Below, piece by piece: positions 14,603 to 59,309 of a stretch of 64,000 nucleotides of DNA (the first letter of the stretch is position 1; every line of letters starts with the position of its first letter). This DNA is from a virus (taxonomy: Duplodnaviria > Heunggongvirae > Uroviricota > Caudoviricetes): IMG/VR virus record IMGVR_UViG_3300032307_000691; one strand, given 5' to 3'. Both the position numbers and the translations under genes were made by a program. The notes below the pieces were generated by a model. That model made no database searches and was not told the DNA's origin. It was given only the letters and a program-made list of their open reading frames with translations.

Positions 14603-15328
14603 TTAAAATAGTTTTCCTTGTATATATTCTTTCTTTTTATTGACGATGGTTGGTACTGAGTTAACACTACCATCCAAGTATCTCTCTAATATTATATTCA
14701 CATTGTTTTCTGTTGGGTCATATATTGAATTGGCAATATTATTCCCATCAATTATATGAGGTCGAGCATAATAAGTTAGTTTCTGAAACGCCTCACCGTA
14801 CTTGTGGAACTGCTTTTTAAATTCTTCTGCAGCAAGCTCCTTAATCCGTTCTTTAAATCTATAATACTCATCACCAATCTCCTTTGTCCATCCGTACTCC
14901 AAACTTGTGAAAAGATAAATCTTCTTCTCAGTTTTGTGGAAGAAGGTTATAATTTTATCCTCACCGGGTGAACCAGTGTTCCATTCAATCTTCTCTTGGT
15001 TATTGGATTTATCTTCGACACCAAAGATTCCGTTTGGTGTGATGAAAAGATAATCAGGTGAACATTTAGAACCGAAGGGTTCGTGGATAACAAAGTAACC
15101 TCCACCTAATCTCTCTGAGGTAAAATCACCGTGTTCACATCTGAAATAGATACCTTTTAATTCGTCCCTATTTTTCTTATTTTCAACATAGAAGGAACCA
15201 TCATTCAACCATGATAATTCTAAGAACTTCTCCATGGTGTGGGTTTCTCGTTCCTTACTATTCCAATCGTTTTCTATTTCGGTAACGATACCCTTCAGAA
15301 TCGATTTAACCTCCTCGCTTTTATTCAT
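14603..15328 (-). CDS. hypothetical protein (241 aa)
   Basis: ORF track. Confidence 0.55.
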   Translation of the reverse strand: MNKSEEVKSILKGIVTEIENDWNSKERETHTMEKFLELSWLNDGSFYVENKKNRDELKGIYFRCEHGDFTSERLGGGYFVIHEPFGSKCSPDYLFITPNGIFGVEDKSNNQEKIEWNTGSPGEDKIITFFHKTEKKIYLFTSLEYGWTKEIGDEYYRFKERIKELAAEEFKKQFHKYGEAFQKLTYYARPHIIDGNNIANSIYDPTENNVNIILERYLDGSVNSVPTIVNKKKEYIQGKLF

Positions 15329-15409
15329 ATATAAAGTATAAGAAATATTTTTCTTTATGTCAAATTATTTCTCAAAACCGAATATATATGAAATGTAAAA
15401 TTTACTACA

Positions 15410-15814
15410 TTGGAATTAAGAGAAGAATTTAAACCGTACCATCAACACTTATTGATGAAGGTTTGGGTCGAGAATCCGCCCAAGGACGCAAGTGTCCTAA
15501 ACGAATGGTTCATTAACTTGGTTCACGCTGTTGGCATGGAAGTCGTAGGGGGACCTACCAGTGTCTATGTCGATTACCCGGGTAATGAGGGATTAACAGG
15601 TACTGTAACCTTAGCAACATCCCATTCATCAATCCACATTTGGGACCATTATGAACTACCAATGGCTCAGTTTGACATCTACAGTTGTAAATGTTTCACT
15701 TTGGAACAAGTCATGGAATGTTTTAAACCATGGGGACTTGTAAAAGCCGAATGGGTAATGATTGATAGAAACGAATTCCCACAGATTACCGAAACCGGTA
15801 CGTGGGGTGTTTAA
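15410..15814 (+). CDS. speH: pyruvoyl-dependent decarboxylase of the SpeH/AdoMetDC class-1 family
   Basis: VDYPGNEGLTGTVTLATSHSSIHIWDHYELPMAQFDIYSC aligns with B. subtilis SpeH ...[29 protein letters not shown]; lone plus-strand gene in a minus block. Confidence 0.7.
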   Translation: MELREEFKPYHQHLLMKVWVENPPKDASVLNEWFINLVHAVGMEVVGGPTSVYVDYPGNEGLTGTVTLATSHSSIHIWDHYELPMAQFDIYSCKCFTLEQVMECFKPWGLVKAEWVMIDRNEFPQITETGTWGV

Positions 15815-16818
15815 ATCCCATATGGAGTTACACTGAACTTAACTCCCATCACCGAGGGACAGTTCTGTAGTATGTGCATTTCAACCAACTCTTGGAAGTA
15901 TTTGACATCTAATGCATCTCTAAGGACACCGTCGTGATAGTATTTTAATGCTCCCGCATCCTCAAGAATATCTAACTTATTAATGATTAATTCAGTAACA
16001 CCATTGATGTTACACGCTTTAATTAAATCATTAACATTTAACCAATCTATTTGTCTCTTTCTACCGGTGGTTGCGCCGTATTCCTGTCCCAGCTCCCTGA
16101 TGGTTTCAAACACCGGGTCATCACCTTCAAAGTCCTTTGCCCCGACATACGTTCTATATGCCTTGGCAATACCATATACGTTTCTAATACTTTGAGGAGG
16201 AACCCCATTAAGAACCGCACTACCAACGGTACAATGTGATGACGTTACATATGGATAATCACCCCAATCAATATCGAGTTCAAACCCTTGAGCTCCCTCA
16301 AATAGAATGGTACACCACTCTTTACCGTGGAACTCTTCGTAAACATCTATCACCATAGAATTAAGGAACGGAGCGTCAATCGCTCTGATACCTTTACGAT
16401 AGTACTTATCTCGGTAGCAAGGACCATTACCTGTTTTAGTTGTACCAATCTGAGTATCCTTTGAATCCTCTTCAATATGTGAATTGGTAATGATATGTGC
16501 ACGTTTATCGATGAAAAGATAATCCTTTACATTTACCCCATTGTCTTGGAGTTCATTTATCTCTTTTACCAATTTATCGATGTTGATAACACAACCTAAT
16601 CCAATGATTGATTTGATTCCATAGAACACACCAACCGGAACCAAATGGGTTACGAATTTCTTATCGTTATGGTAAACAGTGTGTCCCGCATTACCACCAC
16701 CATTGTATCGAACAACGTGTGTGTATCGATTGGGTTCTTTGGCAAGTGCGTGGGCAACTTTACCCTTACCCGTGTCACCGGCTTGGAGGTCGACAATAAC
16801 GTCTGAATATGAAATCAT
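15811..16818 (-). CDS. purA: adenylosuccinate synthetase (shortened)
   Basis: QAGDTGKGKV...GGNAGHT...IGTTKTGNGPCY...FEGAQG...YPYVTSS...GATTGRKR match the PurA GDEGKGK, GHT, GTTxxGIGP and TTGRxRR motifs. Confidence 0.85.
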   Translation of the reverse strand: MISYSDVIVDLQAGDTGKGKVAHALAKEPNRYTHVVRYNGGGNAGHTVYHNDKKFVTHLVPVGVFYGIKSIIGLGCVINIDKLVKEINELQDNGVNVKDYLFIDKRAHIITNSHIEEDSKDTQIGTTKTGNGPCYRDKYYRKGIRAIDAPFLNSMVIDVYEEFHGKEWCTILFEGAQGFELDIDWGDYPYVTSSHCTVGSAVLNGVPPQSIRNVYGIAKAYRTYVGAKDFEGDDPVFETIRELGQEYGATTGRKRQIDWLNVNDLIKACNINGVTELIINKLDILEDAGALKYYHDGVLRDALDVKYFQELVEMHILQNCPSVMGVKFSVTPYGI

Positions 16819-17827: not shown

Positions 17828-18316
17828 TTAATTATCAAACCAAAAAACAACTCTGAAAGCATTCTCTTTTACAGTATATCTTTTTTCATCGTCATTTGTA
17901 ATCCAAAACTCATCTCTAAATCTATTTTCCATCAGTTCAACGAATCCTCTTAACGTTTCCGTCACTTCCTCGTCTTCCGAATTATTATAGAGGTAATCTT
18001 TGAGTTCTTTTAATGTATAATAAGATGGTGTGTGAGCATCTATACCCCATCTTTCAAACTCTTTTCGTGTGGCATCTGTCACATCCTCTGGTAATCCACG
18101 AGGGTCATCAATTGGGTCATAAGAACCTCTAACCTCAGCGAGAATACTGAACAAATCATAGTTCCTTCCCCAATAGAATGGTATTAAATCATATTCTCGT
18201 TCATTCTCATGTGAACTGAAGTCCGGATTTAATTGCCAATGGTCAACATTGACCCATTTGTATTCACCATTTACTGAGGTGTACTTCTCTAAATAAACAT
18301 GTATATCGCATCCCAT
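17828..18316 (-). CDS. hypothetical protein (162 aa)
   Basis: ORF track. Confidence 0.5.
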   Translation of the reverse strand: MGCDIHVYLEKYTSVNGEYKWVNVDHWQLNPDFSSHENEREYDLIPFYWGRNYDLFSILAEVRGSYDPIDDPRGLPEDVTDATRKEFERWGIDAHTPSYYTLKELKDYLYNNSEDEEVTETLRGFVELMENRFRDEFWITNDDEKRYTVKENAFRVVFWFDN

Positions 18317-18352
18317 ATCTAAAAGATAATAAATAAAATTTGAAAAACCAAA

Positions 18353-19324
18353 TTAGAATACGTTTAATTGTTTAACTAATGAATGAATGGTTTTGTGTCT
18401 TGAGAACGTATCTACAATGGTTCCGTCTTGGATATCTTTTACACTATTCGTACAGTAGATACCATCAAAGTATTGTACTAAGAAGTCAAACCCCACACTA
18501 AAAATACCATGGGTAACCACTAAGTAGTTCTTACCATAATGTTGTGGTTGAACTGAACTTGATAACTTTCTTTTCTCTTCGATTGCCTTAGCAATTTCAA
18601 TAAAGGTTCTACCACCATCACAAATGTCATCAAAGATGAAGAAGTCCTTATCGGCATCATGTACTGACATTGGTACATCGGTGTAATCAATTGCACCTGT
18701 TTCAATATTACGATGTTTTGATGAGATGATAACGTTGTGTTTGTATTTTACATTCTCAGCAACATGGAATACTTTTTTCAATGCACCAGCGTCAGGAGAA
18801 ACAAACCGAACCTTTTCAAAATTATCGGTACTCCATGTTTCAAATCCTTTTGAAATGAAATAATCACGTAACGCAAAATCGGCAAGGTCTATGTTATCAA
18901 TTTTCTTGAAGTTGCCAATACACGCCTCAAGTACATCACTATGTGGGTCTATGACGGTAACACTATTATAGCCCTGTGAGTTAATAATTGGTGCAATAAC
19001 ATGTTTGATGTAATTAATACCACCATCCATGAATTTTCTATCACTTCTACCACCAATACAATATGGAATGTAGAGGTCAATGTTTTTAACACCAACTTCT
19101 TTCAATGCTTGTGTTGCACAGATGATAAGTTCAAGGTCACTGAATGTATTCAATCTTGATTTGATTTCGATGCCATGGGTCTTATCTGAATCTCTAAGAG
19201 ATTCAAATGTATTGTACCCGTCTTCAATCAATCTTACCGATTGTTGACCATCAGGAAAACGACTAATTTCATATTTGAATGAGAATCTGTCGTTTGGATT
19301 TACGAGATTTAAAGTTTCTGCCAT
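18353..19324 (-). CDS. prs: ribose-phosphate pyrophosphokinase (PRPP synthetase)
   Basis: VRFVSPDAGALKKV and DDICDGGRTF match the Prs VSPDxGGxxRA and DDxxDTGGT PRPP-binding motifs. Confidence 0.75.
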   Translation of the reverse strand: MAETLNLVNPNDRFSFKYEISRFPDGQQSVRLIEDGYNTFESLRDSDKTHGIEIKSRLNTFSDLELIICATQALKEVGVKNIDLYIPYCIGGRSDRKFMDGGINYIKHVIAPIINSQGYNSVTVIDPHSDVLEACIGNFKKIDNIDLADFALRDYFISKGFETWSTDNFEKVRFVSPDAGALKKVFHVAENVKYKHNVIISSKHRNIETGAIDYTDVPMSVHDADKDFFIFDDICDGGRTFIEIAKAIEEKRKLSSSVQPQHYGKNYLVVTHGIFSVGFDFLVQYFDGIYCTNSVKDIQDGTIVDTFSRHKTIHSLVKQLNVF

Positions 19325-19336
19325 TTTGATTTTGTT

Positions 19337-20128
19337 TTAACTTGACCAATGAAGGTAATATTGTTCTTTATTTTCTTTTGATAGCACGTACTTAATTGTG
19401 TCACGAACAATTTCAAGTGCTTGGATGTACCAAGTATTATCACTTTCAGTTACTACATATACACATGGTTGTTCGTTGAAAATCTTGTAGGTACCGGGAA
19501 TCATCGCCAAAACCTTTAGTGGTTCCGCCATATTAAATTCTCCACGTGAGCTTGAATAGTTGTACTTTTCTCTATCATGGTTACGTTCTTTATCCAACTC
19601 TTCCAAGAAGATATCTAACGCATCTTTTTCAGAGTGTACATCAGGTTCTTTAAACATATTTCCTGATACCTGATGGACACGGTATGCCCCTTTCTTTTTG
19701 AATTCTTCAATGGTTTCTTCACAACGAACCAAACAATCTTCCCATTTTGGTTTAAATACGTAATCCTCTTCTTCCTTGTTGAAAATGTCATAGAGGGTTG
19801 GTAAATCTAAATTTCTAAGAATCCTTTCAATACCACTTTCATTGTATGAACTCCTGAAGTAACCAATTTTAAAGTGGTGGTCAGGATAATCGGGATGAGA
19901 CTCTTCAATTTGTTCTTTGTTTGTGTCATCGTCTCCCCATTCATCTAAACCAAGTGATTCGGCGTATTCTTTACACTTTGTTCTAATCTCATCTTTTGTT
20001 TGTTGAGATAGTGTATCGTATTCACCAACTTCACCCCACAATTTATCACTATACTCTTGGTATTTGGTTTGAAGTTCCTGTGTCTTGTTGATATCGTCAT
20101 AACGATATAAATAAATGTCAAGTCCCAT
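19337..20128 (-). CDS. hypothetical protein (263 aa)
   Basis: ORF track; no NMNAT (H/T)xGH motif seen. Confidence 0.5.
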   Translation of the reverse strand: MGLDIYLYRYDDINKTQELQTKYQEYSDKLWGEVGEYDTLSQQTKDEIRTKCKEYAESLGLDEWGDDDTNKEQIEESHPDYPDHHFKIGYFRSSYNESGIERILRNLDLPTLYDIFNKEEEDYVFKPKWEDCLVRCEETIEEFKKKGAYRVHQVSGNMFKEPDVHSEKDALDIFLEELDKERNHDREKYNYSSSRGEFNMAEPLKVLAMIPGTYKIFNEQPCVYVVTESDNTWYIQALEIVRDTIKYVLSKENKEQYYLHWSS

Positions 20129-20129
20129 G

Positions 20130-21650
20130 TTACAATCTATTTAAACGTTTACGAATTTCTGTTAAAGTTATTTGATTATGGAACTGTCCATTCTCATAAA
20201 TCGTTTGGAGAATACCCTGTGATTCTTGCTCCCAAGTACATTGTGTTAATACTTCATGTTCTTCAGTTACACAAATCAAACCCTTCAGGGATTTCTTGGT
20301 ACCATCATCAGTAACTGGGTCCTTATAGATGTCGTAAGAATGATATGTTTCTATCCCCACCTCATCTATTGTTTTTACCTCAAACCAAGCACCTTTAGCT
20401 GCGAAACCTAATGTGTCACGGGTATTCATTTGGTAAGTGAATGAACCAACACCTAATACGATGTTTGTTGCCGCAAATCCTTTAGCTTCTAATCTTCTAT
20501 AGATTTCCAATTGACGTTCTAACGTGATTGAATCACCGTAGATTGCTCCGATGTGTGGGTCAAGAACTTTGTAACCTTTATCATTGATTGTTCCACCAAA
20601 GATGTCCCAAAGTAATTCGATAACACCCTTAGCAGCAGGGTCCGTGACATTCTTATTTTCAGTGTACTGTAGTTCGTCATCGATAGAATAACTAAATCCA
20701 TAATCACCACAAATAATATCCACCGGATTACCTGAGTCAGGACGGATAACCAACTTACCGTCACGAGCCATGATAGCTTCTTTGTTTGCTGGTAAGTATT
20801 CGGTAATCAACTTCCACAAGTCAAATGTGTCAGATACGATTGAAAGGATTCCTTTAGGAAAATCAACCAACCAATCGGCAATCATTTGTTGTTCACCAAC
20901 CGTAAAGATTTTAGTTGTTGATACTGAGTGTTCAGATGCGTTTACTGAGTACACACATACTTGGTCTTCAGGTTCGTTGTAGAAGTAACGAGCACCGGGG
21001 ATGCAAATGATTGTATCAGAACCAAGGAATGAAGATGCGTGTCCTAATCCACTTGATAACATATCCCAAGGACTTAATCCACGTGCGGAGAAGTCATGAC
21101 AAAGGAAAGGAATCAAGAAAGCATTTGACGGGTCTGTCTTCATAACCCACTCAACAACATTACGTCTGTATTGTAGGGCAATTGTTGCTGATGTTGAAGG
21201 TTTCCATGACAATGAACTGATGATTGTTTCCAAGTACAAAGTCAACCATGCAAATCCATCAACAGTATTGATGAAAGTCATGTGAGGTACGTTTGGATTC
21301 GTTTCAATACCTTCGGGTAATGACTTAACACGGATAGGTAGGTACCCTAACTTGTGTAACTCAACGAAGTGTGTTGCATCGTAATCCATTCCAAGATACA
21401 TCGACATATCCTTTCCGAATCTTTCTGCAACCTCAATTGGTTGGTTGAAGAAGTTCTCTTGGAACTCGTCATGTAACCATTTAACAACAAGTTGTTGTCC
21501 GAATGATACAATTTTACTTACACCTCTTGGTGCATACTTAACACTACGTGGAATCCATGTTCCGTACAAACGTGTTGTGTCTTTTGCTAACATTCTTTTG
21601 TGGCCAATCTTATAGCCATCAGTGTAGAATAATGAATTTGGTTTAAACAT
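20130..21650 (-). CDS. nadV: nicotinamide phosphoribosyltransferase
   Basis: TDGYKIGH, KSLPEG, HDFSARG, IRPDSGNP, KDPVTDDGTKKSLKG align with NAMPT. Confidence 0.85.
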   Translation of the reverse strand: MFKPNSLFYTDGYKIGHKRMLAKDTTRLYGTWIPRSVKYAPRGVSKIVSFGQQLVVKWLHDEFQENFFNQPIEVAERFGKDMSMYLGMDYDATHFVELHKLGYLPIRVKSLPEGIETNPNVPHMTFINTVDGFAWLTLYLETIISSLSWKPSTSATIALQYRRNVVEWVMKTDPSNAFLIPFLCHDFSARGLSPWDMLSSGLGHASSFLGSDTIICIPGARYFYNEPEDQVCVYSVNASEHSVSTTKIFTVGEQQMIADWLVDFPKGILSIVSDTFDLWKLITEYLPANKEAIMARDGKLVIRPDSGNPVDIICGDYGFSYSIDDELQYTENKNVTDPAAKGVIELLWDIFGGTINDKGYKVLDPHIGAIYGDSITLERQLEIYRRLEAKGFAATNIVLGVGSFTYQMNTRDTLGFAAKGAWFEVKTIDEVGIETYHSYDIYKDPVTDDGTKKSLKGLICVTEEHEVLTQCTWEQESQGILQTIYENGQFHNQITLTEIRKRLNRL

Positions 21651-30621: not shown

Positions 30622-31173
30622 TTGTTAGTGATATTTATTACTAGAATGTTCAAATATATATCTGAAATATTATCAAAATTCACTCAGGGTCAAAGAATTA
30701 TGGCTCTTTTATTGTTATTGTTTTCAATAACATTAATATCTGTGGGTCCAAAAATCGTGGAATCTTTCACTTCAAGTAGTGAAGAACTGGAATTGAGAGT
30801 GCAATCACAAAACACACAAATCATTCAACTAAATAAAAGGGTAAATGAATTAACCACTCAAATTATTGACAATCAAAGAGAGTGTACCAATTCAATTGTG
30901 GTTAGGGAAGCAGAGATTTTGATGGAGATTGCCGAACTTGAACGTAGAATTAAGAACGAAATGAAGAACCAAAATGGTTTGGTTAAAGAAGAAGAGATTT
31001 TCGTTAATAGAATGGAGAAATATGACGGTGAATATCCGAGAGTTGCTATGTCACCTCCACCACCGGCACCTGTAAAAATAGAAACCCCCCAAACAAATCA
31101 AATGATGCTTGAGGGGTTATCCAAAATCAAATCAAATATCAAAAAGGACATCAAGTCCAAAAGTGGTAATTAA
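30622..31173 (+). CDS. membrane-anchored coiled-coil protein
   Basis: TM helix followed by heptad-rich segment; lone plus-strand gene. Confidence 0.5.
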   Translation: MLVIFITRMFKYISEILSKFTQGQRIMALLLLLFSITLISVGPKIVESFTSSSEELELRVQSQNTQIIQLNKRVNELTTQIIDNQRECTNSIVVREAEILMEIAELERRIKNEMKNQNGLVKEEEIFVNRMEKYDGEYPRVAMSPPPPAPVKIETPQTNQMMLEGLSKIKSNIKKDIKSKSGN

Positions 31174-38130: not shown

Positions 38131-38153
38131 AAAAAACCCCTTTTCAGGGGTTT
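38131..38153 (-). terminator. rho-independent terminator
   Basis: AACCCCTGAAAAGGGGTT followed by a U-run on the minus strand; overlaps the stop of 38144..38719. Confidence 0.55.
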
Positions 38154-38719
38154 AAAAATTGAATTATTTTGTCTTTTATTCCTGACTGTTTTATGCCTTC
38201 ATTACCCTTGGGTGTGAGGACAAAGTTATCTAATCCCCAATCTTTCCAATCCTCACCGTTTTTACCCATATCCAAATCATCGATGGAAACCCAATGAGTA
38301 ACTTCAGGGTGGTCATGTAAGAATTGTCTTATCTCAATAACACGAGTCATCTCTAAATCCCAACGTGGGGACCAAATCCAAACCTTATCATTGTACCAAT
38401 TACATTGACCTAAGTTAGTGGTTACCGCAATTGGTTTTTTGATGATACCTTGAAGTTCATAGTATTCACCCAATTCATCCAAGTTTGCATGGTGTTTCCA
38501 ATCAGAACTTATAACGATTTCTGCACCGGTTTCTTCTAAGATTTGATTAAGTACTTCGACCGCTTTCTTGTTAAAGTTGTCAAATCGATACTGTAATGGA
38601 ATTTCTCTACTTGACATGGATAGTTTACGTCCACCCCATTTGTCTTGTTTCTTGTAACGACCCCCCCACTCTGAGGATAAACAGATTACTCCGTCATGGT
38701 CTAAAAATATAACTTTCAT
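38144..38719 (-). CDS. HAD-superfamily phosphatase (PNK 3'-phosphatase-like)
   Basis: MKVIFLDHDGVI DxDGV motif; tandem paralog of 38722..39294. Confidence 0.55.
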   Translation of the reverse strand: MKVIFLDHDGVICLSSEWGGRYKKQDKWGGRKLSMSSREIPLQYRFDNFNKKAVEVLNQILEETGAEIVISSDWKHHANLDELGEYYELQGIIKKPIAVTTNLGQCNWYNDKVWIWSPRWDLEMTRVIEIRQFLHDHPEVTHWVSIDDLDMGKNGEDWKDWGLDNFVLTPKGNEGIKQSGIKDKIIQFLNP

Positions 38720-38721
38720 AA

Positions 38722-39294
38722 TTAATAGTTCATTTCTATGACGGTTTTATCCAACATTGCCTTGGCTATTTCGTAATAGTGTTGGTTAAAACCATCTTTG
38801 TTTCTCGGTGAAGGTAACACATGGACAAAATGATTTCTTTGTCCATATAACATATCGGAATCATCATCTATGATAATGTAGTTCTCTACACCAGATTCAT
38901 CCATTATTTTTTGTTGTTCCTCTTCTGACCAATTTATATGGTGAAATTTTAAATCATTCTCTAAGTAGTACTGAATCTCTAAACCTCTTGGTATGTGTAG
39001 TTTTGATGTCCTCAATGATGGTGTGATTCCAATAATCTCACCACTCATGTTTTCGTACTCCCACACCTTTTTCATAAACTCAATTCCACTCATTCTCCAA
39101 GTGGATGAAATCACAATCTTTGCCCCCGTTTCCTCGATGAGTTTGTTTAATAGGTCTTTACTATTAACACAAAATCTTTGGTAATGGTCCTTACGACCAT
39201 CTTCCCATACCCATTCTTGGTATTGACATTCACCAGCTCGGTAAGCATTTTCACAATTCAATACACCATCAATATCTAAAAAGATTATCTTCAT
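38722..39294 (-). CDS. HAD-superfamily phosphatase, tandem paralog
   Basis: MKIIFLDIDGVLNC; ...ISSTWR / ...ISSDWK shared. Confidence 0.55.
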   Translation of the reverse strand: MKIIFLDIDGVLNCENAYRAGECQYQEWVWEDGRKDHYQRFCVNSKDLLNKLIEETGAKIVISSTWRMSGIEFMKKVWEYENMSGEIIGITPSLRTSKLHIPRGLEIQYYLENDLKFHHINWSEEEQQKIMDESGVENYIIIDDDSDMLYGQRNHFVHVLPSPRNKDGFNQHYYEIAKAMLDKTVIEMNY

Positions 39295-39296
39295 GG

Positions 39297-39644
39297 TTAT
39301 TTGAAATAAATTTTTTTAGGAAACTCACCAAACACAAATTTAGTCACGTCACAGAGCCACATCTTTAAATTGTAATCTAAACCCATATAACTCCTTAATC
39401 CATACCATGCCCCCTCACCGATTTCGGGACCTTCGAATCTACCTAAATGTAAAAACTCAAGAGTTTCTGAACCTTCGAATTCCTCGGTCGACATTCTTAT
39501 GAATACTTCATTTTCACTTTGAGATAATAAATCAAGAAATATGTCGGCACCCATTACCATTTGGAGTTCCCATTGTTCTCCTTCCCATTCAGGTAAATCA
39601 ACGAACCAACCTAATTCATTTCTATAAAATTTATATAATCTCAT
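39297..39644 (-). CDS. hypothetical protein (115 aa)
   Basis: ORF track. Confidence 0.5.
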   Translation of the reverse strand: MRLYKFYRNELGWFVDLPEWEGEQWELQMVMGADIFLDLLSQSENEVFIRMSTEEFEGSETLEFLHLGRFEGPEIGEGAWYGLRSYMGLDYNLKMWLCDVTKFVFGEFPKKIYFK

Positions 39645-39743
39645 TTTTTGGGTTTAGTTAGTAAACACTCATAACATACAATGGATAATCCACTAAGGAT
39701 TGGTATGGGTTTACCGCATTTTTTACAATTGTTAATACTACTA

Positions 39744-40427
39744 TTACTCATAAAACTTTTTAAATACCTTTTTAAATTCTTTATAATATAGTTTATATGT
39801 TATATCACTCCACATATGTAATTTACCGGTGGACATGAAAGCTTGAATCTCGTCGTCAATTATTTTTTTATCATCAACATAACCAACCTTTATCAAATGT
39901 CTTTTCAAATGATTATAATGGATTGGTTTGATATGTGATATTAAATAATCCATCTCAACTTTATAATTCAGATTGGTATAATATAAACCATGAGCAATCT
40001 CATGATTCATTGTTGAAGATTTGAGGGTGTCCGCACCAATCAAATACCACGGGTGTGGTGTGCCGTCATTCCGTATTTGCGATTCCCTATCGCAATAATT
40101 GATGATTTCATTCATTACCTCATCATAATTGGTTTCGGTTTTTCTAAACAACTTCTTCGCTTCAAATAAAATATTTGATGGGATGTTGTAACCACTCCAA
40201 TCTGCGGGATAGGTGAAAACATTCTTCTTGTTTGTTTTCGTGTAGAGTCTCATGTACTGCTCTAACGTGAAGAACTGTCTTCTTATTTCAGGGAATGGGG
40301 ATTCGTAGAACTCTTGGTATCTACAAAACAACATTGACCTGTCGTAATTATCTTTAATTACTGTTGCGAATATAAATGGTCTGATTTCTTCAACGTGTCC
40401 TTTAACTAATGGATTGTCTATTGTCAT
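39744..40427 (-). CDS. putative zinc metallopeptidase (HExxH)
   Basis: MNHEIAHGLYY HExxH motif. Confidence 0.4.
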   Translation of the reverse strand: MTIDNPLVKGHVEEIRPFIFATVIKDNYDRSMLFCRYQEFYESPFPEIRRQFFTLEQYMRLYTKTNKKNVFTYPADWSGYNIPSNILFEAKKLFRKTETNYDEVMNEIINYCDRESQIRNDGTPHPWYLIGADTLKSSTMNHEIAHGLYYTNLNYKVEMDYLISHIKPIHYNHLKRHLIKVGYVDDKKIIDDEIQAFMSTGKLHMWSDITYKLYYKEFKKVFKKFYE

Positions 40428-46046: not shown

Positions 46047-46309
46047 TCGTCAATATTGAAATCATCATTCAAGTACTCTTGGTACTTTACTTGAATCATG
46101 TGTGTGTAATGTTGTTCTCTTGTGTGTCTTTGGATAGTTTCAACAACCGCATCCGCGTGTCCCTGTCCAAACTTTTCTACCATCTCGGTATACTCATCAG
46201 TATTTTCGAAGTCCAATAAATGGTCAACCACCTCATATACTTTAGTGGATGCTAATGGTTCGAAATCATCAAAGGTTAGTTTTAAATTTTCCATAACAAT
46301 AAATATCAA
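46043..46309 (-). CDS. hypothetical protein (88 aa)
   Basis: ORF track. Confidence 0.45.
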   Translation of the reverse strand: MIFIVMENLKLTFDDFEPLASTKVYEVVDHLLDFENTDEYTEMVEKFGQGHADAVVETIQRHTREQHYTHMIQVKYQEYLNDDFNIDE

Positions 46310-47508
46310 TTACTTAAAGGTGCCTTAATTGATGGGTGAGATTGGTAATTCAACAATTCAAAATTATGAATACTGTAATAATCCAAATCTAACTTATTTG
46401 GGTCCGGTTTCCCAAATTCAAATAAGGTAGGACTTATTTTTAATATGGGTAACTTAAATGGTTCTCTAGTATGTCTTGGTATTTCATATTCATCGTATGC
46501 CCAACTTAAACCTCCACCAAATGGTACCAAATCTTTTACCGCGGAATTATAATTCTTCTCACCCATTGCATTTTTTAATAACGTAATTCTCTCTTCATGA
46601 GAATACTTTCTACCAATTTGTTCTTTAGCTTGTTCAATATGATTTAGATATAAGTGTGTGTCACCCAAGTTTCCAATCAATTCATCTGGAATCATATTTA
46701 CTTCTTTTGCGATAATTTCGAGTAACAAAGCATAACTCGCTATATTGAATGGTAATCCTAAAAAAGTATCAACTGAACGTTGATTCCACATTAATGAGAT
46801 TGCTCGTTTTGGAACTCTCAAACTATCCATATGGACGTGATGATAATCCGAACTTCTACCCAACGGGTCTTTTGTTTTGTTGTAATAATCGATTCGTTCA
46901 TCCAAGTTCAACTCTCTTGTATAAACTTGAAACCCATAATGACAAGGTGGAAGTACCATTCGGTTTAATTCACCTACATTCCAAGCATTAACCATTAATC
47001 GTCTTGAGTCAGGATTTGTTTTAAGGTCGTTGATTAGGTTTACGATTTGGTCTGTGTTAGAATTTAATCCTTCCCAACTTCTCCATTGTTCACCATAGAT
47101 TGGACCTAATTCACCCCACTTTTTAGCAAACTCATCATCGGTTTTGATTTTGTTGATGAAGTCTTCTTTAGAAATTAAAATTCGAGTTTCGTGAAAATCT
47201 TTATCATTCTCATTAGGTCGACTATTGTTTAAATAATTCATATACGCATCACCATCCCAAATATGACAACCATTATCAACAAGGAACTTGATATTTGTAT
47301 CACCACGAAGGAACCATAATAACTCGGTCACCATAGTTTTCCAAGCCATCTTCTTAGTAGTTAGAAGAGGAAACCCTTCACTCATCTTATGACGGATTTG
47401 TCTACCGAATACTGAAATAGTGCCGGTACCTGTTCTGTCTTTCTTCTCCACACCATTATCTATGATGTCCTGAAGAAGTTTCTGATATTGCTTATCAATG
47501 TTATTCAT
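46306..47508 (-). CDS. thyA: thymidylate synthase family protein with large insertions (ThyA; a dNMP hydroxymethylase cannot be excluded)
   Basis: GFPLLTTKK...LLWFLRGDTN, GPIYGEQWRSW, LPPCHYGFQVYT, DTFLGLPFNIASYALLLEIIA...GDTHLY; about 400 aa versus roughly 264-316 typical. Confidence 0.75.
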   Translation of the reverse strand: MNNIDKQYQKLLQDIIDNGVEKKDRTGTGTISVFGRQIRHKMSEGFPLLTTKKMAWKTMVTELLWFLRGDTNIKFLVDNGCHIWDGDAYMNYLNNSRPNENDKDFHETRILISKEDFINKIKTDDEFAKKWGELGPIYGEQWRSWEGLNSNTDQIVNLINDLKTNPDSRRLMVNAWNVGELNRMVLPPCHYGFQVYTRELNLDERIDYYNKTKDPLGRSSDYHHVHMDSLRVPKRAISLMWNQRSVDTFLGLPFNIASYALLLEIIAKEVNMIPDELIGNLGDTHLYLNHIEQAKEQIGRKYSHEERITLLKNAMGEKNYNSAVKDLVPFGGGLSWAYDEYEIPRHTREPFKLPILKISPTLFEFGKPDPNKLDLDYYSIHNFELLNYQSHPSIKAPLSN

Positions 47509-48646: not shown

Positions 48647-49012
48647 ATGTTAGCAATAGTAAACGGAAAACAATTCCAAGGAGAATACCTAACCCAACCC
48701 CATGAGATTCAAAAAGGAATGATGGGTAGAGATTCTCTTGATGGTTGTATGGTTTTTAAAATGGGAATGGGGCATCACACGTTTTGGATGAAAAACTGTG
48801 TTATCCCATTAGATATTGTATTTGTAAACAAGAATAGAATTTCCCATATACATCAGAATTGTCCTCCCGCAGATTCACACGATATGAATCCACCGAGGTA
48901 TACTGGTATCGGTGACCACGTAATAGAATTCCCTGCAGGTACCTGTCAAGGTTGGAAGGTTGGGGATAAGGTTAACCTCTATCTTGGTACTCCACAGAAC
49001 CCTGTGGGATAA
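48647..49012 (+). CDS. DUF192-family protein
   Basis: HTFWMKNCVIPLDIVFVNKNRI matches the DUF192/COG1430 core. Confidence 0.5.
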   Translation: MLAIVNGKQFQGEYLTQPHEIQKGMMGRDSLDGCMVFKMGMGHHTFWMKNCVIPLDIVFVNKNRISHIHQNCPPADSHDMNPPRYTGIGDHVIEFPAGTCQGWKVGDKVNLYLGTPQNPVG

Positions 49013-50285: not shown

Positions 50286-51644
50286 ATGAAGAAAAAGATT
50301 TTATTATTATCCGATGATTTGAGAATGACATCGGGAGTCGCAACCATGTCCAAAGAAATTGTACTTGGGACCATACACAAATATGATTGGGTACAATTGG
50401 GCGGTGCATTAAACCATCCTGAAGCCGGTAAGATTGTCGACATTAATGAAGATGTGAGAAAAAGAACAGGTGTTAAGGATGCCAATTTAAAAGTGATTCC
50501 AAACAATGGTTATGGAAATATTTTCACTTTAAGAATGTTAATGGAGGTTGAGAAACCTGATGCCATTTTACATTTCACCGACCCACATTATTGGCAATGG
50601 TTGTACGATGCGGAACATGAGATAAGACAACAAATTCCTATTCTATATTATCATGTTTGGGATAACCTACCCGACCCAACCTATAACAGAAACATCTATG
50701 AGAGTTGTGATTGGATTGGTTGTATCTCTAAACAAACATATGGTTTAGTTAAACGAGTTAGTTCAATTGATACTGAGGAAACATTCCAACCATTAAAGGA
50801 TTGGCAAGTTAGTTACGTTCCTCACGGTATTAATCCTGATGTGTTTAAACCGGTGGATACGTTGTCAGATGATTTACGTAAACATATCTTCGGTGAGAAA
50901 GATTACGAATTCATTTTATTCTTCAATAACAGAAACATTAAAAGGAAACAACCAGCTGATGTGATTCTATCATATAAACTATTCTGCGATTCTTTAACGA
51001 AAGAACAATCAGAGAAATGTTTATTGTTGATGCACACAACACCAATTGATGAGAACGGGACCGACTTAACTGTCGTATCTAAATCATTGTGTCCCGATTA
51101 TGATATTAAGTTTATTGATTTAAAATTAGAACAAGATAAATTAAATGAACTTTATAATATTGTTGATTGCACCATTAACATTTCAAACAATGAAGGTTTT
51201 GGTTTAGGTACCGCAGAGAGTATCATGGCGGGAACTCCAATCATTGTAAATGTTACCGGTGGATTACAAGACCAATGTGGTTTTAATTATACCGCGGAGA
51301 ACTATGTAACATTTGGTTCATTACACAATAAGAAGGTACATGGGTCAACAAAACACGGCGAGTGGGTTGTTCCGGTATGGTCGGATGTGAACAACCTAAA
51401 TGGTTCTATCCCCACACCATTCATTTATGAAGACCGAGTTAACAATAATATTGTTGCAGGTGCAATTGGTGAAGTATATGGTTGGGGTAGAGAAGAAAGA
51501 AAACGTAGAGGTTTAGTTGGTAGGGAATGGGCAATCGAAAACCTATCAAGTAAAGTAATGTGTGATGGAATTATAGATGGAATTGAAACCACTTTAAAAA
51601 AATATAAACCCCGTAAACGATTTGATTTATATAAGATAGTATGA
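50286..51644 (+). CDS. glycosyltransferase (GT4/GT1-like)
   Basis: C-terminal EGFGLGTAESIMAGTPII matches the GT4 E(G)FG...G.P(I/V)I signature. Confidence 0.65.
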   Translation: MKKKILLLSDDLRMTSGVATMSKEIVLGTIHKYDWVQLGGALNHPEAGKIVDINEDVRKRTGVKDANLKVIPNNGYGNIFTLRMLMEVEKPDAILHFTDPHYWQWLYDAEHEIRQQIPILYYHVWDNLPDPTYNRNIYESCDWIGCISKQTYGLVKRVSSIDTEETFQPLKDWQVSYVPHGINPDVFKPVDTLSDDLRKHIFGEKDYEFILFFNNRNIKRKQPADVILSYKLFCDSLTKEQSEKCLLLMHTTPIDENGTDLTVVSKSLCPDYDIKFIDLKLEQDKLNELYNIVDCTINISNNEGFGLGTAESIMAGTPIIVNVTGGLQDQCGFNYTAENYVTFGSLHNKKVHGSTKHGEWVVPVWSDVNNLNGSIPTPFIYEDRVNNNIVAGAIGEVYGWGREERKRRGLVGREWAIENLSSKVMCDGIIDGIETTLKKYKPRKRFDLYKIV

Positions 51645-52888
51645 GTAAACCATTTTTACTTTTTAGAGGACCAGTAGAAACCGTTAGTGGTTATGGTGCA
51701 CATTCGAGAGATTTATTAAGAGCACTACGTGATATGGATTTATTTGATATTCGTATTGATTCTTGTCATTGGGGTGCAACACCAAGAACCGCGTTAAATA
51801 AGAATGATGAATTCAGTAAATGGATTTATGCAAACAAAATAACAACCTTATCTGCCACACCTGACATCTATGTTCAAGTGACGGTACCGAATGAGTTTCA
51901 AAGAGTTGGTAAGTTTAATATAGGAATCACAGCAGGTATTGAAACTACCGCAGCACCAAAGGAATGGGTTGATGGGTGTAATAGAATGGATTTGATTATA
52001 ACAACTTCTAATTTTAGTAGGGATGTTCTTCTTCAAACCGTCTTCAATGAAACCGATAAGTTAACAGGCAAACTTGTTAAACAATATAAAATCGAAAGAC
52101 CGATTGAGGTTCTCTTCGAGGGTGTCGATACCGACGTGTACAATAATAAATTCACAAGTCTCGATGTTGATATTAAGGAAGATTTTTGTTATCTTTTTGT
52201 TGGTCACTGGTTGAAAGGTGACATTGGTCAGGATAGAAAGGATGTTGGTATGTTAATTAAATCATTTGTTGAGTCGTTCAAGGATACTGAGGACCAACCA
52301 GCATTAGTTTTAAAAACATCATCAGCAGGATTTTCTGTGAAGGAAAGAGAAACCTTCAAAAAGAAAATTAAAGACTTGGTGAAGGGTATTGAGAATCCTC
52401 CATCGATTTACCTTCTGTTCGGACAACTAACCGATAACGAAATGAACGAATTATATAATCACCCAAGAATTAAAAGCATGATTACTCTTACTAAGGGTGA
52501 AGGATTCGGTCGACCACTACTTGAATTTTCAATGACAGGTAAACCAATCATCGCATCCAATTGGTCAGGACATAGAGATTTCTTACCTATGGATAAAGCA
52601 ATTATGATTGGTGGAGCATTAACAGATGTTCATTCAAGTGCGGTTGACAATTTCATTGTTAAGGATTCTAAATGGTTCACTGCAAATTATTCGGAAGCAA
52701 TAGAAGTAATGAAGATTGTAAAGAGAGATTATGATGAGTTCTATGAGAAATCTCAAATTTTGATGGAAGAAAATAAAGAGAAGTTCTCAATGGAAAGAAT
52801 GAAAGAAGTGTTTCAATCAATCATCACACCGTATGTTGTTAAACCAAAAGAAGTTAAAATAAATTTACCTCAATTAACTAAATTATAA
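51641..52888 (+). CDS. glycosyltransferase (GT4/GT1-like)
   Basis: GEGFGRPLLEFSMTGKPIIASNWSGH. Confidence 0.6.
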   Translation: MSKPFLLFRGPVETVSGYGAHSRDLLRALRDMDLFDIRIDSCHWGATPRTALNKNDEFSKWIYANKITTLSATPDIYVQVTVPNEFQRVGKFNIGITAGIETTAAPKEWVDGCNRMDLIITTSNFSRDVLLQTVFNETDKLTGKLVKQYKIERPIEVLFEGVDTDVYNNKFTSLDVDIKEDFCYLFVGHWLKGDIGQDRKDVGMLIKSFVESFKDTEDQPALVLKTSSAGFSVKERETFKKKIKDLVKGIENPPSIYLLFGQLTDNEMNELYNHPRIKSMITLTKGEGFGRPLLEFSMTGKPIIASNWSGHRDFLPMDKAIMIGGALTDVHSSAVDNFIVKDSKWFTANYSEAIEVMKIVKRDYDEFYEKSQILMEENKEKFSMERMKEVFQSIITPYVVKPKEVKINLPQLTKL

Positions 52889-53163
52889 TGGGATTAAGTA
52901 GTTTTAAATTTGGTAGAGATAACTATACAAAGGAATTTACACTAACCAATGATTATCTACCTTTATTAAGAATTGCTCCGGCAATAACATTTCAACAAAC
53001 AGAGTGGGTGTTTCAGTTTGATGATGAACAGCCGGTGGTATTTGCTTCACAACAAGAAGAACCCAACCTAACCATCACACTCAACAACACAAATCACGCA
53101 TCAATAGAATTCACAGACAATAACAGAAGATTTAAAATATTCGCAAGGGAGAGACAACAATGA
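52888..53163 (+). CDS. hypothetical protein (91 aa)
   Basis: ORF track; translationally coupled. Confidence 0.45.
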   Translation: MGLSSFKFGRDNYTKEFTLTNDYLPLLRIAPAITFQQTEWVFQFDDEQPVVFASQQEEPNLTITLNNTNHASIEFTDNNRRFKIFARERQQ

Positions 53164-53786
53164 AAATCAGCTATGGAATCACGGTATGTAATGAGTTAGA
53201 GGAAATCAAACGATTGGTACCTCTATTAATTGAGAACAAAAGAATTGAGGATGAAATCATAATTCTTTTTGATGACAAAAATGGAAGTCAAGAAGTTTTA
53301 GATTTCTTATTACCATTTAATAAATTACCAAATGTTCAAACGTGGAGAGGTTTGGTATTTGTAAATGATTTTGCGATATGGAAAAATAAACTGAATGGTT
53401 ATTGTTCAGGAGATTATATTTTCCAACTTGATGCAGATGAATTAATTACAAAAGAACTAATATTGAATTTACCGGAAGTAATCGAATCTAATCCTGAGGT
53501 GGACTTGTTTGTATTCCCACGAATTAATACCGTGAAAGGAATCACAGACGAACACATTAAAATGTGGGGATGGAGAATGGACGATAAAGGTAGAATCAAT
53601 TTCCCCGATTGGCAAGGAAGATTATATAAGAAGGGTTTAAATTGGCACGGAAAGGTTCATGAAAAGATTGTGGGTGCTAAAACCTATTCTCTCATGCCCG
53701 AAGATGAGGGGTACTGTCTTATCCACGAGAAAACAATTGAAAGACAAGAAAGACAAAATAATTTTTATTCTAAAATAACTAAGTAA
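53160..53786 (+). CDS. glycosyltransferase family 2
   Basis: YGITVCNELEEIKRL...FDDKNG...QLDADE (DxD). Confidence 0.6.
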   Translation: MKISYGITVCNELEEIKRLVPLLIENKRIEDEIIILFDDKNGSQEVLDFLLPFNKLPNVQTWRGLVFVNDFAIWKNKLNGYCSGDYIFQLDADELITKELILNLPEVIESNPEVDLFVFPRINTVKGITDEHIKMWGWRMDDKGRINFPDWQGRLYKKGLNWHGKVHEKIVGAKTYSLMPEDEGYCLIHEKTIERQERQNNFYSKITK

Positions 53787-54580
53787 TGGTTAAAATCATA
53801 TCCAATTATTCTGGTTTAGGTGGGTCCACCATAATCTTAATTAACTTAACAAATCTATTCAACAGTAAAGGTATCAAAACAACATTCTATGGTCCACACG
53901 ATTACCACATGGATAAGTGTGACGGTAAAAAACTAACAGATTTAAAATTAGATAAAGATGATATCTTACTGACCCATTTTTTTAAATTTGATAAGAGACC
54001 GAATGTGAAACGTGTGGTATTGGCATCACATGAAAAATGGTGGTTTGAGATTGCAGATTGTCCGAGATATTTTGATACAGTTGTTTTCAATCATGAGGAA
54101 CAACGAAACTATCATAGTAGATATGACGGACCATATGTTCTAATACCCAATCCAAAAGATGTTACATCACCACTTTACGCAATTGACAAACCTGAAAAGG
54201 AAATGATTGCTGGTGTTATTGGTAGTATTGAGACAAGGAAACAAACTCACCTATCAATAGAAAGAGCTCTTGAGGATGGGTGTGAGAAAGTATTGGTGTA
54301 CGGTAAGATAATGGATGATGCATATTTTAAAAAATATTGTAGAAAATATGAATACCATCCAAACGTAAAATTCATGTGGCAAACTGACAATAAACAAGAA
54401 ATGTATAATAGTATTGGTCGAGTTTATCACATGTCAAAGGGTGAAGTTTCATGTTTAGTAAAAGATGAATGTCATTACACAAATACCAAATTCTTTGGTA
54501 ATGAACAAACTGAACACGTGGTATCAGATTTAACCAATGATGATATTTTCTTATTGTGGAAAGATGTTTTAAAATTTTAA
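53786..54580 (+). CDS. hypothetical protein, possible glycosyltransferase accessory (264 aa)
   Basis: ORF track; in-operon position. Confidence 0.45.
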   Translation: MVKIISNYSGLGGSTIILINLTNLFNSKGIKTTFYGPHDYHMDKCDGKKLTDLKLDKDDILLTHFFKFDKRPNVKRVVLASHEKWWFEIADCPRYFDTVVFNHEEQRNYHSRYDGPYVLIPNPKDVTSPLYAIDKPEKEMIAGVIGSIETRKQTHLSIERALEDGCEKVLVYGKIMDDAYFKKYCRKYEYHPNVKFMWQTDNKQEMYNSIGRVYHMSKGEVSCLVKDECHYTNTKFFGNEQTEHVVSDLTNDDIFLLWKDVLKF

Positions 54581-54583
54581 TGG

Positions 54584-55687
54584 ATGGACATTAGTTTAGT
54601 ACTTGCAGTATTCAATAAATTAGATTTAACTAAGGATTGTTATAAAAGAATCCGTGAAATTTATCCCGACGCACCACTTGTTATCAGTAGTGGTGGTTCT
54701 ACAGATGGAACTAAGGAATGGTTAGAGTCACTAGCCGATGATAACCTATCTTACATTCATGACGATGATAAGTTAGTTTTTTCAGAGAACTACAATGCTG
54801 CAATCAAGTTAGTGGATACTGAAAAGTTAGTGTTGATTCACAACGATATGGTCATTGGGAGACACTTTCTTGAGAATTTGGATAGATTACTCACGCCAGA
54901 CACTTTGTTGTCTTATACGACCTTAGAACCACCGATTTTTAAGGGACATAACAGACCCGGTAAGGTAATTGTAGATATGGGTTATGGTTTCCACGATTTC
55001 AAATGGTTAGAGTTTGACAAATATGTTGAAGAGAATAAATCAGATTGTAGAATATACGATGGTGCAGTATTCTTCATGAGTGGATACAAGAAGATGTTTG
55101 AGGATGTTGGGTTCTTTGATGGGTTTAGTTTCGTACCGGCATTTGCTGAGGACGATGATTTCTTAATCAGGGCCAAACTCAAAGGTTACAAATTAAAAAC
55201 AACCACTTGTGCAATCACCTATCACTTTGTTTCTCAAACATCAAGGTTTAGTGATGACTTTAAGAATGATAGAATGAAGTATGAGATTAACTCAAATAGA
55301 AACTTTGTTCGTAAGTGGGGCATACCCATCCCCGCATTTAATGAATTGAGGTATTGGGAGGATTCTTTGTTTACTTATAAAACATTTACCATGGGCTTAA
55401 CTACCCGAAATCGTTCAAGGTTATATGAGATTGAACCATTCTTCGATAAGATTGATTTAGGGATAATTCCTGAGGATTATTTGGAGAATGAACAGAAGAA
55501 CACCCGTTATGATTTAAGGTCAAAATTTGTCCTTACTGACGTTGTGGATGTAATGGTATATGAACTAAGTCCTTTGACCGATGAGGACATTTACACCCTA
55601 CAAAAATTGCGTTTATCGATACCACATTACCCCATTGGGGAATACAAGATTGGTTCGATGAAAATAGAAATAAAAAAGGGGGTATAA
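54584..55687 (+). CDS. glycosyltransferase family 2
   Basis: ISLVLAVFNKLDLTKDCYKRI...SSGGSTDGT...IHNDMVI. Confidence 0.6.
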   Translation: MDISLVLAVFNKLDLTKDCYKRIREIYPDAPLVISSGGSTDGTKEWLESLADDNLSYIHDDDKLVFSENYNAAIKLVDTEKLVLIHNDMVIGRHFLENLDRLLTPDTLLSYTTLEPPIFKGHNRPGKVIVDMGYGFHDFKWLEFDKYVEENKSDCRIYDGAVFFMSGYKKMFEDVGFFDGFSFVPAFAEDDDFLIRAKLKGYKLKTTTCAITYHFVSQTSRFSDDFKNDRMKYEINSNRNFVRKWGIPIPAFNELRYWEDSLFTYKTFTMGLTTRNRSRLYEIEPFFDKIDLGIIPEDYLENEQKNTRYDLRSKFVLTDVVDVMVYELSPLTDEDIYTLQKLRLSIPHYPIGEYKIGSMKIEIKKGV

Positions 55688-59143: not shown

Positions 59144-59309
59144 TGATTCGGTTTAAAAGGTTTTCTTTAATCTCATTCTCATCTTTGAATAAATGAAAAT
59201 GAACGGGTTTATTACACATACAAGTGAAGTCCATATATTCGTTCACTAGTTCTTTATACTTCGTTTCTAAAAATTCAATTCGTTCTTTTAATTCTTTAAT
59301 CTCGTCCAT
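59137..59309 (-). CDS. possible small coiled-coil protein (about 57 aa) bridging the halogenase and membrane genes; coordinates approximate
   Basis: MDEIKELKERIEFLETKYKELVNEYMDFTCMCNKPVHFHLF...; overlaps the halogenase 3' end in another frame. Confidence 0.2.

Follow-up and report, generated by a model that had tools for sequence, protein, structure and literature searches.

We examined a 64-kb stretch of DNA from a Caudoviricetes virus, referred to here as the window. At 15410..15814 on its plus strand lies a gene for a SpeD-like proenzyme of 134 amino acids (aa), with a TTG start and a TAA stop. The protein matched the Pfam family AdoMet_dc (PF02675; 44.2 bits against a cutoff of 25; E value, 2.6e-11) and also PHROG 3125, "S-adenosylmethionine decarboxylase" (E value, 1.8e-12). 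The TTG is the sole in-frame start between an in-frame TGA at 15389 and Met16. The N-terminal segment EEFxPYHQHLL, which lies upstream of Met16, is kept across homologs and holds the first beta strand of the AF2 fold; thus, the TTG is the real start and Met16 is not. Most relatives start with an ATG 5 to 6 codons ahead of PYHQHLL, and the window lineage uses a TTG 8 codons ahead of it. Comparison of the gene with its relatives gave dN/dS values of 0.03 to 0.08, and the open reading frame (ORF) is a real gene under strong purifying selection.

A conserved block of ∼30 nucleotides (nt) directly precedes the gene (AATATATATGAAATGTAAAATTTACTACA; 15381..15409, plus strand) and is a degenerate copy of a family-wide inverted repeat, GATATATATGTA...ACATAT. 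In the family, the block reads GATATATATGTA(A/T)...(T/A)ACATAT and, in almost every genomic context (loci L003-L097), ends immediately ahead of the start codon. It is an AT-only inverted repeat with a loop of variable length. Manual pair counting put pairing in the repeat at 83.7% and showed a compensatory AU/UA swap in 12 of the sequences, which lends modest support to pairing; RNAalifold returned no consensus structure for the block. Elsewhere in the window the motif was not enriched (17 matches versus 12 ± 3 expected; 1 versus 0.4), and it was therefore rejected as a general promoter motif of the genome. We presume that the block provides the gene with a promoter or leader of its own; it may serve as a promoter, leader, or operator. 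We found no sigma-70 promoter for the SpeD-like gene on the plus strand. On the minus strand, a near-consensus sigma-70-type promoter (15335..15363; TTGACA, 17 nt, TATACT; 11 of 12 positions matched) is directed toward the divergent ORF of 241 aa at 14603..15328.

On its other side, the SpeD-like gene converges with a purA-like gene (15811..16818, minus strand), as the earlier note on this DNA had described, and their stop codons share a palindromic 4-nt TTAA (15811..15814). No terminator-like site was found between the two genes, which in relatives at 88% identity are 280 bp apart. The purA-like protein is 335 aa long, versus 411 to 432 aa for the matched bacterial PurA structures; it has an internal deletion of ∼45 aa, a truncated C terminus, and the P-loop GDTGKGK instead of GDEGKGK. 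Its phage matches were mostly to Arthrobacter, Vibrio, and Microbacterium phages, the usual PurZ carriers. PurZ, of the 2-aminoadenine pathway, was rejected as the primary reading because the protein scored 200 bits to bacterial PurA versus 53 to 68 bits to PurZ structures.

Predicted fold and catalytic residues

The AF2 model of the 134-aa protein, built with 96 diverse relatives as input, had a mean pLDDT of 97.2. In a Foldseek search, the top PDB matches were the T. maritima AdoMetDC structures 1tmi, 1tlu, and 1vr7 (TM, 0.66 to 0.77; probability, 1.0), followed by plant, human, and trypanosome AdoMetDCs. The best match among viral models was an "S-adenosylmethionine decarboxylase family" protein from an uncultured Caudovirales phage. 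As modeled, the protein has the class 1b AdoMetDC fold. The assignment to the SpeH class (class 1b AdoMetDC, SpeH/SpeD) had been made from the sequence, and both the PF02675 match and the model with its T. maritima top match uphold it; the structure prediction that had been proposed as a check for an unrelated fold returned the AdoMetDC fold.

In the alignment to AdoMetDC structures, LATSHSSIHIWD of the window protein pairs with LAESHISIHTWPE of 2iii and with a 13-residue stretch of 1tlu. Residues 69 to 74 thus read A-T-S-H-S-S, and Thr70 takes the position of the Glu found in canonical enzymes; this bears out the ATSHSS previously read at the predicted processing site. The SHxxIHxWxE core that had been described stood only in its first part: SHSSIHIW is present, but the Glu of WxE is absent, and the actual core is SHSSIHIWDH. 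From these alignments, the predicted self-cleavage site falls between Thr70 and Ser71 (codons ACA TCC, 15617..15622, plus strand), and Ser71 corresponds to T. maritima Ser63. His76 (CAC, 15635..15637, plus strand) is the counterpart of T. maritima His68, a residue required for processing (PMC10407285), and Cys93 (TGT, 15686..15688, plus strand) corresponds to T. maritima Cys83, which is among the residues essential for self-processing and is also involved in catalysis (PMC10407285). S63, H68, and C83 of the T. maritima enzyme are together essential to self-processing and catalysis (PMC10407285).

These three residues are also the only columns that were invariant among the 96 relatives (28 to 87% identity to the query), and they are likewise unchanged in all of the 120 closest homologs. 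A further set of positions (T70, H72, W78, D89, Y91, R120, H11, and H13) was at least 90% conserved in the 96-relative alignment.

The Thr-Ser site had been presented as unusual, but x-T-S-H is the norm in a large clade that is almost entirely phage and metagenomic and that includes pelagiphage HTVC201P. All of the 120 closest homologs (70 to 98% identity) carry TLATSH[A/S/C]S, and nearly all of the best 150 cluster representatives (≤50% identity) carry x-T-S-H, with E, A, S, T, K, Q, D, or N at the −2 position; F-S or E-S occupied the site in only a handful of these 150. Thr before Ser is, moreover, one of the four diagnostic residues of SpeDC (PMC10407285). The SpeDC site reads Q-L-I-E-T-S-L-I-S-G-H-F in the published supplementary alignment (PMC10407285), and the 120 SpeDC homologs that we retrieved confirm this motif. 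In the D. phosphitoxidans SpeDC, S229 follows T228, and the S229A substitution (in IETS) abolishes ODC activity (PMC10407285).

Distribution and genomic placement of the family

In a collection of cultured phages, the protein matched only 11 pelagiphages and one uncultured Pelagivirus, at 30 to 35% identity; the tblastn match to HTVC201P had 32% identity and an E value of 4e-18. A metagenomic protein search, on the other hand, returned 592 homologous clusters. In a library of representatives, 558 clusters matched at an E value of ≤1e-3 but just two at ≤1e-30, so the subfamily with ATSH at the processing site is a tight group distant from the rest. In IMG/VR, 212 contigs carry the ATSH subfamily, many of them 150 to 333 kb long (for example, IMGVR_UViG_3300027804_000001, at 333 kb), and other carriers measured 276 and 319 kb. 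A scan of 185,579 species genomes by close alignment yielded only four MAG contigs of 1.4 to 3.2 kb, and thus there is no evidence of a cellular source. Together, the IMG/VR contigs and the near-absence from species genomes indicate that the ATSH family is confined to uncultured jumbo phages. Neither a megablast search with 20 kb of the window nor a tblastn search with a 626-aa ORF produced a match in the phage collection, so the genome to which the window belongs is not close to any deposited phage.

Within the window, the SpeD-like gene had been described as the only plus-strand gene in a block of minus-strand genes. This is not exact, since plus-strand ORFs are also present at 48647..49012 and 30622..31173, both of which lie inside or at the edge of the block. 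The former has conserved homologs (E value, 1e-59). The latter encodes 183 aa and fills a gap without any minus-strand ORF of more than 44 aa; we found no homolog of it in the related loci that were fetched. Judging by its sequence, this protein appears to have a hydrophobic stretch at the N terminus, and its middle part appears charged and may form a coiled coil.

The placement of the SpeD-like gene differed among relatives. In the closest ones (88 to 98% protein identity), the order is the same as in the window: a dTDP-sugar epimerase gene, a small ORF, and the 241-aa ORF, all on the minus strand, followed by the SpeD-like gene in plus orientation and then purA, again in minus orientation. 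Because these relatives share the arrangement, the odd orientation was inherited and is not recent. In most of the 80 IMG/VR loci covered by a tblastn synteny survey (80+ loci in all), the SpeD-like gene is instead co-directional with its neighbors, flanked on one side by a methylase-like gene, with DUF6717 present or absent, and on the other by HAD_SAK_2, and in a third group of the surveyed loci it occupies other contexts. The window has its own, intact methylase-DUF6717-HAD block (38144..40427, minus strand), in which the site that holds the SpeD-like gene in most related phages is "empty." As identified by the synteny survey and Pfam, this block consists of the methylase-like gene (39744..40427), DUF6717 (39297..39644), and tandem HAD_SAK_2 paralogs of 190 and 191 aa (38144..39294), all on the minus strand. 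The 5′-side HAD_SAK_2 copy (38722..39294) stands where most relatives hold the SpeD-like gene, and the second paralog follows at 38144..38719.

These comparisons bear on the earlier suggestion of an independently acquired cassette, of which one part holds. The position and orientation of the gene vary while its upstream block is retained, so that the SpeD-like gene resembles a small, self-contained cassette relocated within the phage lineage. However, the family is limited to that lineage, the purA-convergent arrangement is conserved at 88 to 98% identity, and the GC content of the gene (0.41) is close to that of the adjoining purA-like gene (0.40). The restriction to one lineage and the conserved arrangement argue for relocation within the lineage and not for recent foreign acquisition.

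A plausible route of mobility is suggested by the fusions found in the wider clade. Four metagenomic relatives (P0211, P0228, P0248, and P0252; 34 to 39% identity) join the SpeD-like domain to a C-terminal GIY-YIG/SegE homing endonuclease, and other long members of the clade have an extension of ∼170 aa that lacks a Pfam match. We also searched the long clade members for Rosetta-stone fusions to polyamine enzymes and found none, as the extensions were either GIY-YIG/SegE or Pfam-less.

Relation to characterized decarboxylases

Two published groups of SpeD-derived decarboxylases, together with canonical AdoMetDC, provide the points of comparison. The nearest characterized enzyme is AXH71538 of pelagiphage HTVC201P, which reads IETSHIAFHSWDE...VQLDVYTC. 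It decarboxylates L-arginine with a kcat/Km of 290 M−1 s−1, does not complement an E. coli delta-speD mutant, and lacks AdoMetDC activity (PMC9992855). HTVC201P and its pelagiphage relatives (HTVC104P, 115P, 048P, 105P, and uvMED S35-C6) likewise have the class 1b AdoMetDC fold and a Thr-Ser-His site, and the pelagiphage SpeDA is likewise a single phage-borne gene. The pelagiphage group and the window family have in common, and do not share with canonical SpeD, an HxH motif, PPK, a GNxGLT insertion, TSH, WD, QxDxYxC, and DR. In profile-profile comparison, the window family aligned with the six pelagiphage proteins over its full length (117 columns; probability, 99.7; E value, 7e-27; score, 151), with canonical SpeD at an E value of 2e-12 (score, 71), and with 15 SpeDC proteins at an E value of 8e-6 (score, 37). 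There is no curated family definition for SpeDA of the HTVC201P type, and membership is assigned here on the profile relationship and the shared motifs.

The two groups nevertheless differ in several respects. Identity of the HTVC201P group to the window protein is only 30 to 35%. At the −2 position the window protein has Ala, where the pelagiphage enzymes have Glu or Asp (ETSH in HTVC201P), and at −5 it has Val instead of Gln. The window protein is 134 aa long, with an extra C-terminal strand, versus 121 to 132 aa for the six pelagiphage proteins. The carriers of the window family are uncultured jumbo phages with contigs of up to 333 kb, in contrast to pelagiphages of ∼40 to 55 kb, and whereas the Pelagivirus gene lies between exonuclease and ribonucleotide reductase genes, the window gene adjoins purA.

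SpeDC, found in bacteria, archaea, and freshwater phages, has the same fold, a Thr directly before the pyruvoyl-forming Ser, and the conserved Ser, His, and Cys (PMC10407285). The window protein differs from it in lacking the diagnostic Gln, Phe, and Tyr, and the SpeDC site is ETSL, with SL...HFA. A tblastn search with the SpeDC domain found no match in the phage collection. Canonical class 1b AdoMetDC (T. maritima 1TLU/1TMI; cyanophage SpeD) is the best structural match and has its catalytic Ser, His, and Cys at the same positions, but differs from the window protein in having Glu-Ser where the latter has Thr-Ser and WPE where the latter has WDH, and in lacking two short insertions (GNEG and a loop after WD).

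A Thr-Ser site and a shift toward arginine or ornithine within the AdoMetDC fold have thus already been published, in the HTVC201P and SpeDC work (PMC9992855, PMC10407285). When we searched the literature for more recent studies of SpeDA and SpeDC structure or specificity, we found none beyond these two 2023 papers and a 2026 homospermidine paper. As a further observation on phage-borne genes of this kind, Microcystis phage MaAM05, a cyanophage of 274 kb, has two speH genes side by side, with speE after them (MW495066.1, 247181..249093). The speH pair resembles the SpeD/SpeD-homolog pairs that have been used to spot neofunctionalized copies (PMC10407285).

Probable substrate and role in giant phages

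We propose, with a probability of about 0.7, that the window protein is a self-processing pyruvoyl decarboxylase that most likely converts L-arginine to agmatine, with L-ornithine to putrescine as the second choice and AdoMet as an unlikely substrate. An altered substrate, arginine or ornithine in place of AdoMet, had been suggested in the earlier note and appears most likely, given that the shift has been shown biochemically in the nearest characterized relatives (PMC9992855, PMC10407285). Since the protein is best read as being of the HTVC201P type, we infer L-arginine as the most likely reaction, at ∼32% identity to the nearest characterized enzyme and with mixed activities in the wider clade. 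Taken one by one, arginine decarboxylation (ADC) is our tentative favorite, at a little under even odds; ornithine decarboxylation (ODC) or a dual ADC/ODC activity is possible, with clearly lower expectation; bona fide AdoMetDC activity and a substrate of another kind are each given a small chance, and inactivity a very slight one.

The phylogeny by itself does not settle the substrate. Five freshwater phage homologs (LBP and UCP01-04) decarboxylate L-ornithine (PMC9992855), so that ADC and ODC both occur in the clade, and Sinorhizobium phage phiN3 has a bona fide AdoMetDC that is placed inside the phage ODC clade (PMC9992855). The phiN3 case also speaks for a true AdoMetDC (SpeD/SpeH) at the present locus, which would supply decarboxylated AdoMet to a spermidine synthase of the host or the phage. 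The fold and the catalytic triad are identical in kind to those of AdoMetDC, a true speD is carried by many marine phages, and automated pipelines label the family "S-adenosylmethionine/arginine decarboxylase-like enzyme." We nonetheless consider this reading improbable. On the NCBIfam AdoMetDC equivalog TIGR03330, the window protein scored 32.2 bits and the HTVC201P ADC 38.4 bits, both of which fail the cutoff of 75.65. In addition to Thr-Ser in place of Glu-Ser, the window protein has W78-D79-H80 in place of WPE, with WD in all of the 120 closest homologs; the Pro of H-x-W-P-E is invariant in bona fide AdoMetDC but variable in the SpeDA ADCs (PMC10407285, Fig. 8). The profile of the family is much nearer to the HTVC201P group, which failed delta-speD complementation (PMC9992855), than to canonical SpeD, and the spermidine synthase family was not found in the 64-kb window.

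The same Thr-Ser site that argues against AdoMetDC is common to the window protein and SpeDC, and would fit a pyruvoyl-dependent L-ornithine decarboxylase that makes putrescine directly, an activity found in five of five characterized phage homologs from freshwater metagenomes (PMC9992855). In published work, the argument has also been made that agmatine, unlike putrescine, depends on additional host enzymes. This SpeDC-like reading is unlikely, if less so than the previous one, because only one of the four SpeDC diagnostic residues is present. When the diagnostic positions were located by means of the D. phosphitoxidans SpeDC domain and 120 homologs of this domain, the window protein had the Thr, but Val66 at the Gln position (−5), Ile77 at the Phe position (+6), and Gln87 at the Tyr position (C-6). 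Moreover, it retains SH...HxW where SpeDC has SL...HFA, its family scored 37 against the SpeDC profile versus 151 against the ADC group, and BLASTP to the SpeDC domain gave an E value of 0.06. The absence of the canonical Glu ahead of Ser could alternatively mark a variant that does not process itself or is catalytically dead and has retained only the fold, as a pseudoenzyme or binding protein, and the earlier note had left room for such a variant; dead SpeDC domains are known, for example, in a Victivallis vadensis fusion. That dead domain, however, lost exactly the Ser, His, and Cys residues whose invariance in 96 relatives, and in all of the 120 closest homologs, argues strongly against a dead variant here. 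Thr-Ser enzymes do process and are active, the pyruvoyl group of one SpeDC enzyme has been proven to derive from the Ser that follows Thr, and the gene is under strong purifying selection. We therefore regard the dead variant as the least probable of the readings weighed here.

For the preferred reading, a pyruvoyl decarboxylase acting on a basic amino acid, the course of events can be sketched by homology. The proenzyme would fold first, after which the Ser71 hydroxyl would attack the Thr70 carbonyl with the assistance of His76. The chain is predicted to split into a beta chain (residues 1 to 70) and an alpha chain (residues 71 to 134), and the N-terminal Ser of the alpha chain, Ser71, would become the pyruvoyl group. 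This group would form a Schiff base with the alpha-amino group of the basic amino acid, CO2 would leave, and Cys93 would help to complete catalysis. As an auxiliary metabolic gene, the SpeD-like gene might thereby provide more polyamine precursor in an infected cell that has a very large phage genome to accommodate.

We found no genes for agmatine-to-putrescine conversion and no spermidine or homospermidine synthase genes in the 64-kb window, and the Spermine_synth family was absent from Pfam scans of all window ORFs of ≥100 aa. The downstream pathway must thus come from the host or from the rest of the genome. The SpeD-like gene itself is placed among genes of nucleotide and NAD metabolism. 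Metabolic genes are dense in the window at 17828..21650, 46306..47508, 50286..55687, and 59296..60831. An NAPRTase-family protein (20130..21650) is encoded near an ORF of 323 aa whose DDICDGGRT resembles a PRPP-binding motif and which has no Pfam match. Also in the metabolic set are thymidylate synthase, DHFR, a glycosyltransferase cluster on the plus strand, and a protein resembling tryptophan halogenases.

A more speculative reading, to which we give little weight, is that the ATSH subfamily represents a further independent neofunctionalization of SpeD, with a substrate other than arginine, ornithine, or AdoMet, or else a dual ADC/ODC tuned to very large genomes. The upstream inverted repeat would then possibly be a dedicated regulatory element, for example, one that senses a polyamine or an amino acid. 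The basis for this reading is the ∼32% identity to any characterized enzyme, the restriction to jumbo phages, the Ala at −2, and a conserved surface of the subfamily's own.

On balance, the window gene most likely belongs to an uncharacterized, sequence-distinct subfamily of the phage SpeD-derived arginine/ornithine decarboxylases that have already been described. Thr-Ser sites and substrate switching within this fold have been on record since 2023, and the gene therefore leaves the present view of polyamine metabolism unchanged. What the subfamily adds to the phage SpeD-derived decarboxylases is hundreds of metagenomic clusters and 212 IMG/VR contigs, many from jumbo phages of 150 to 330 kb, and this indicates that an entire lineage of uncultured giant phages has probably conserved the synthesis of polyamine precursors.
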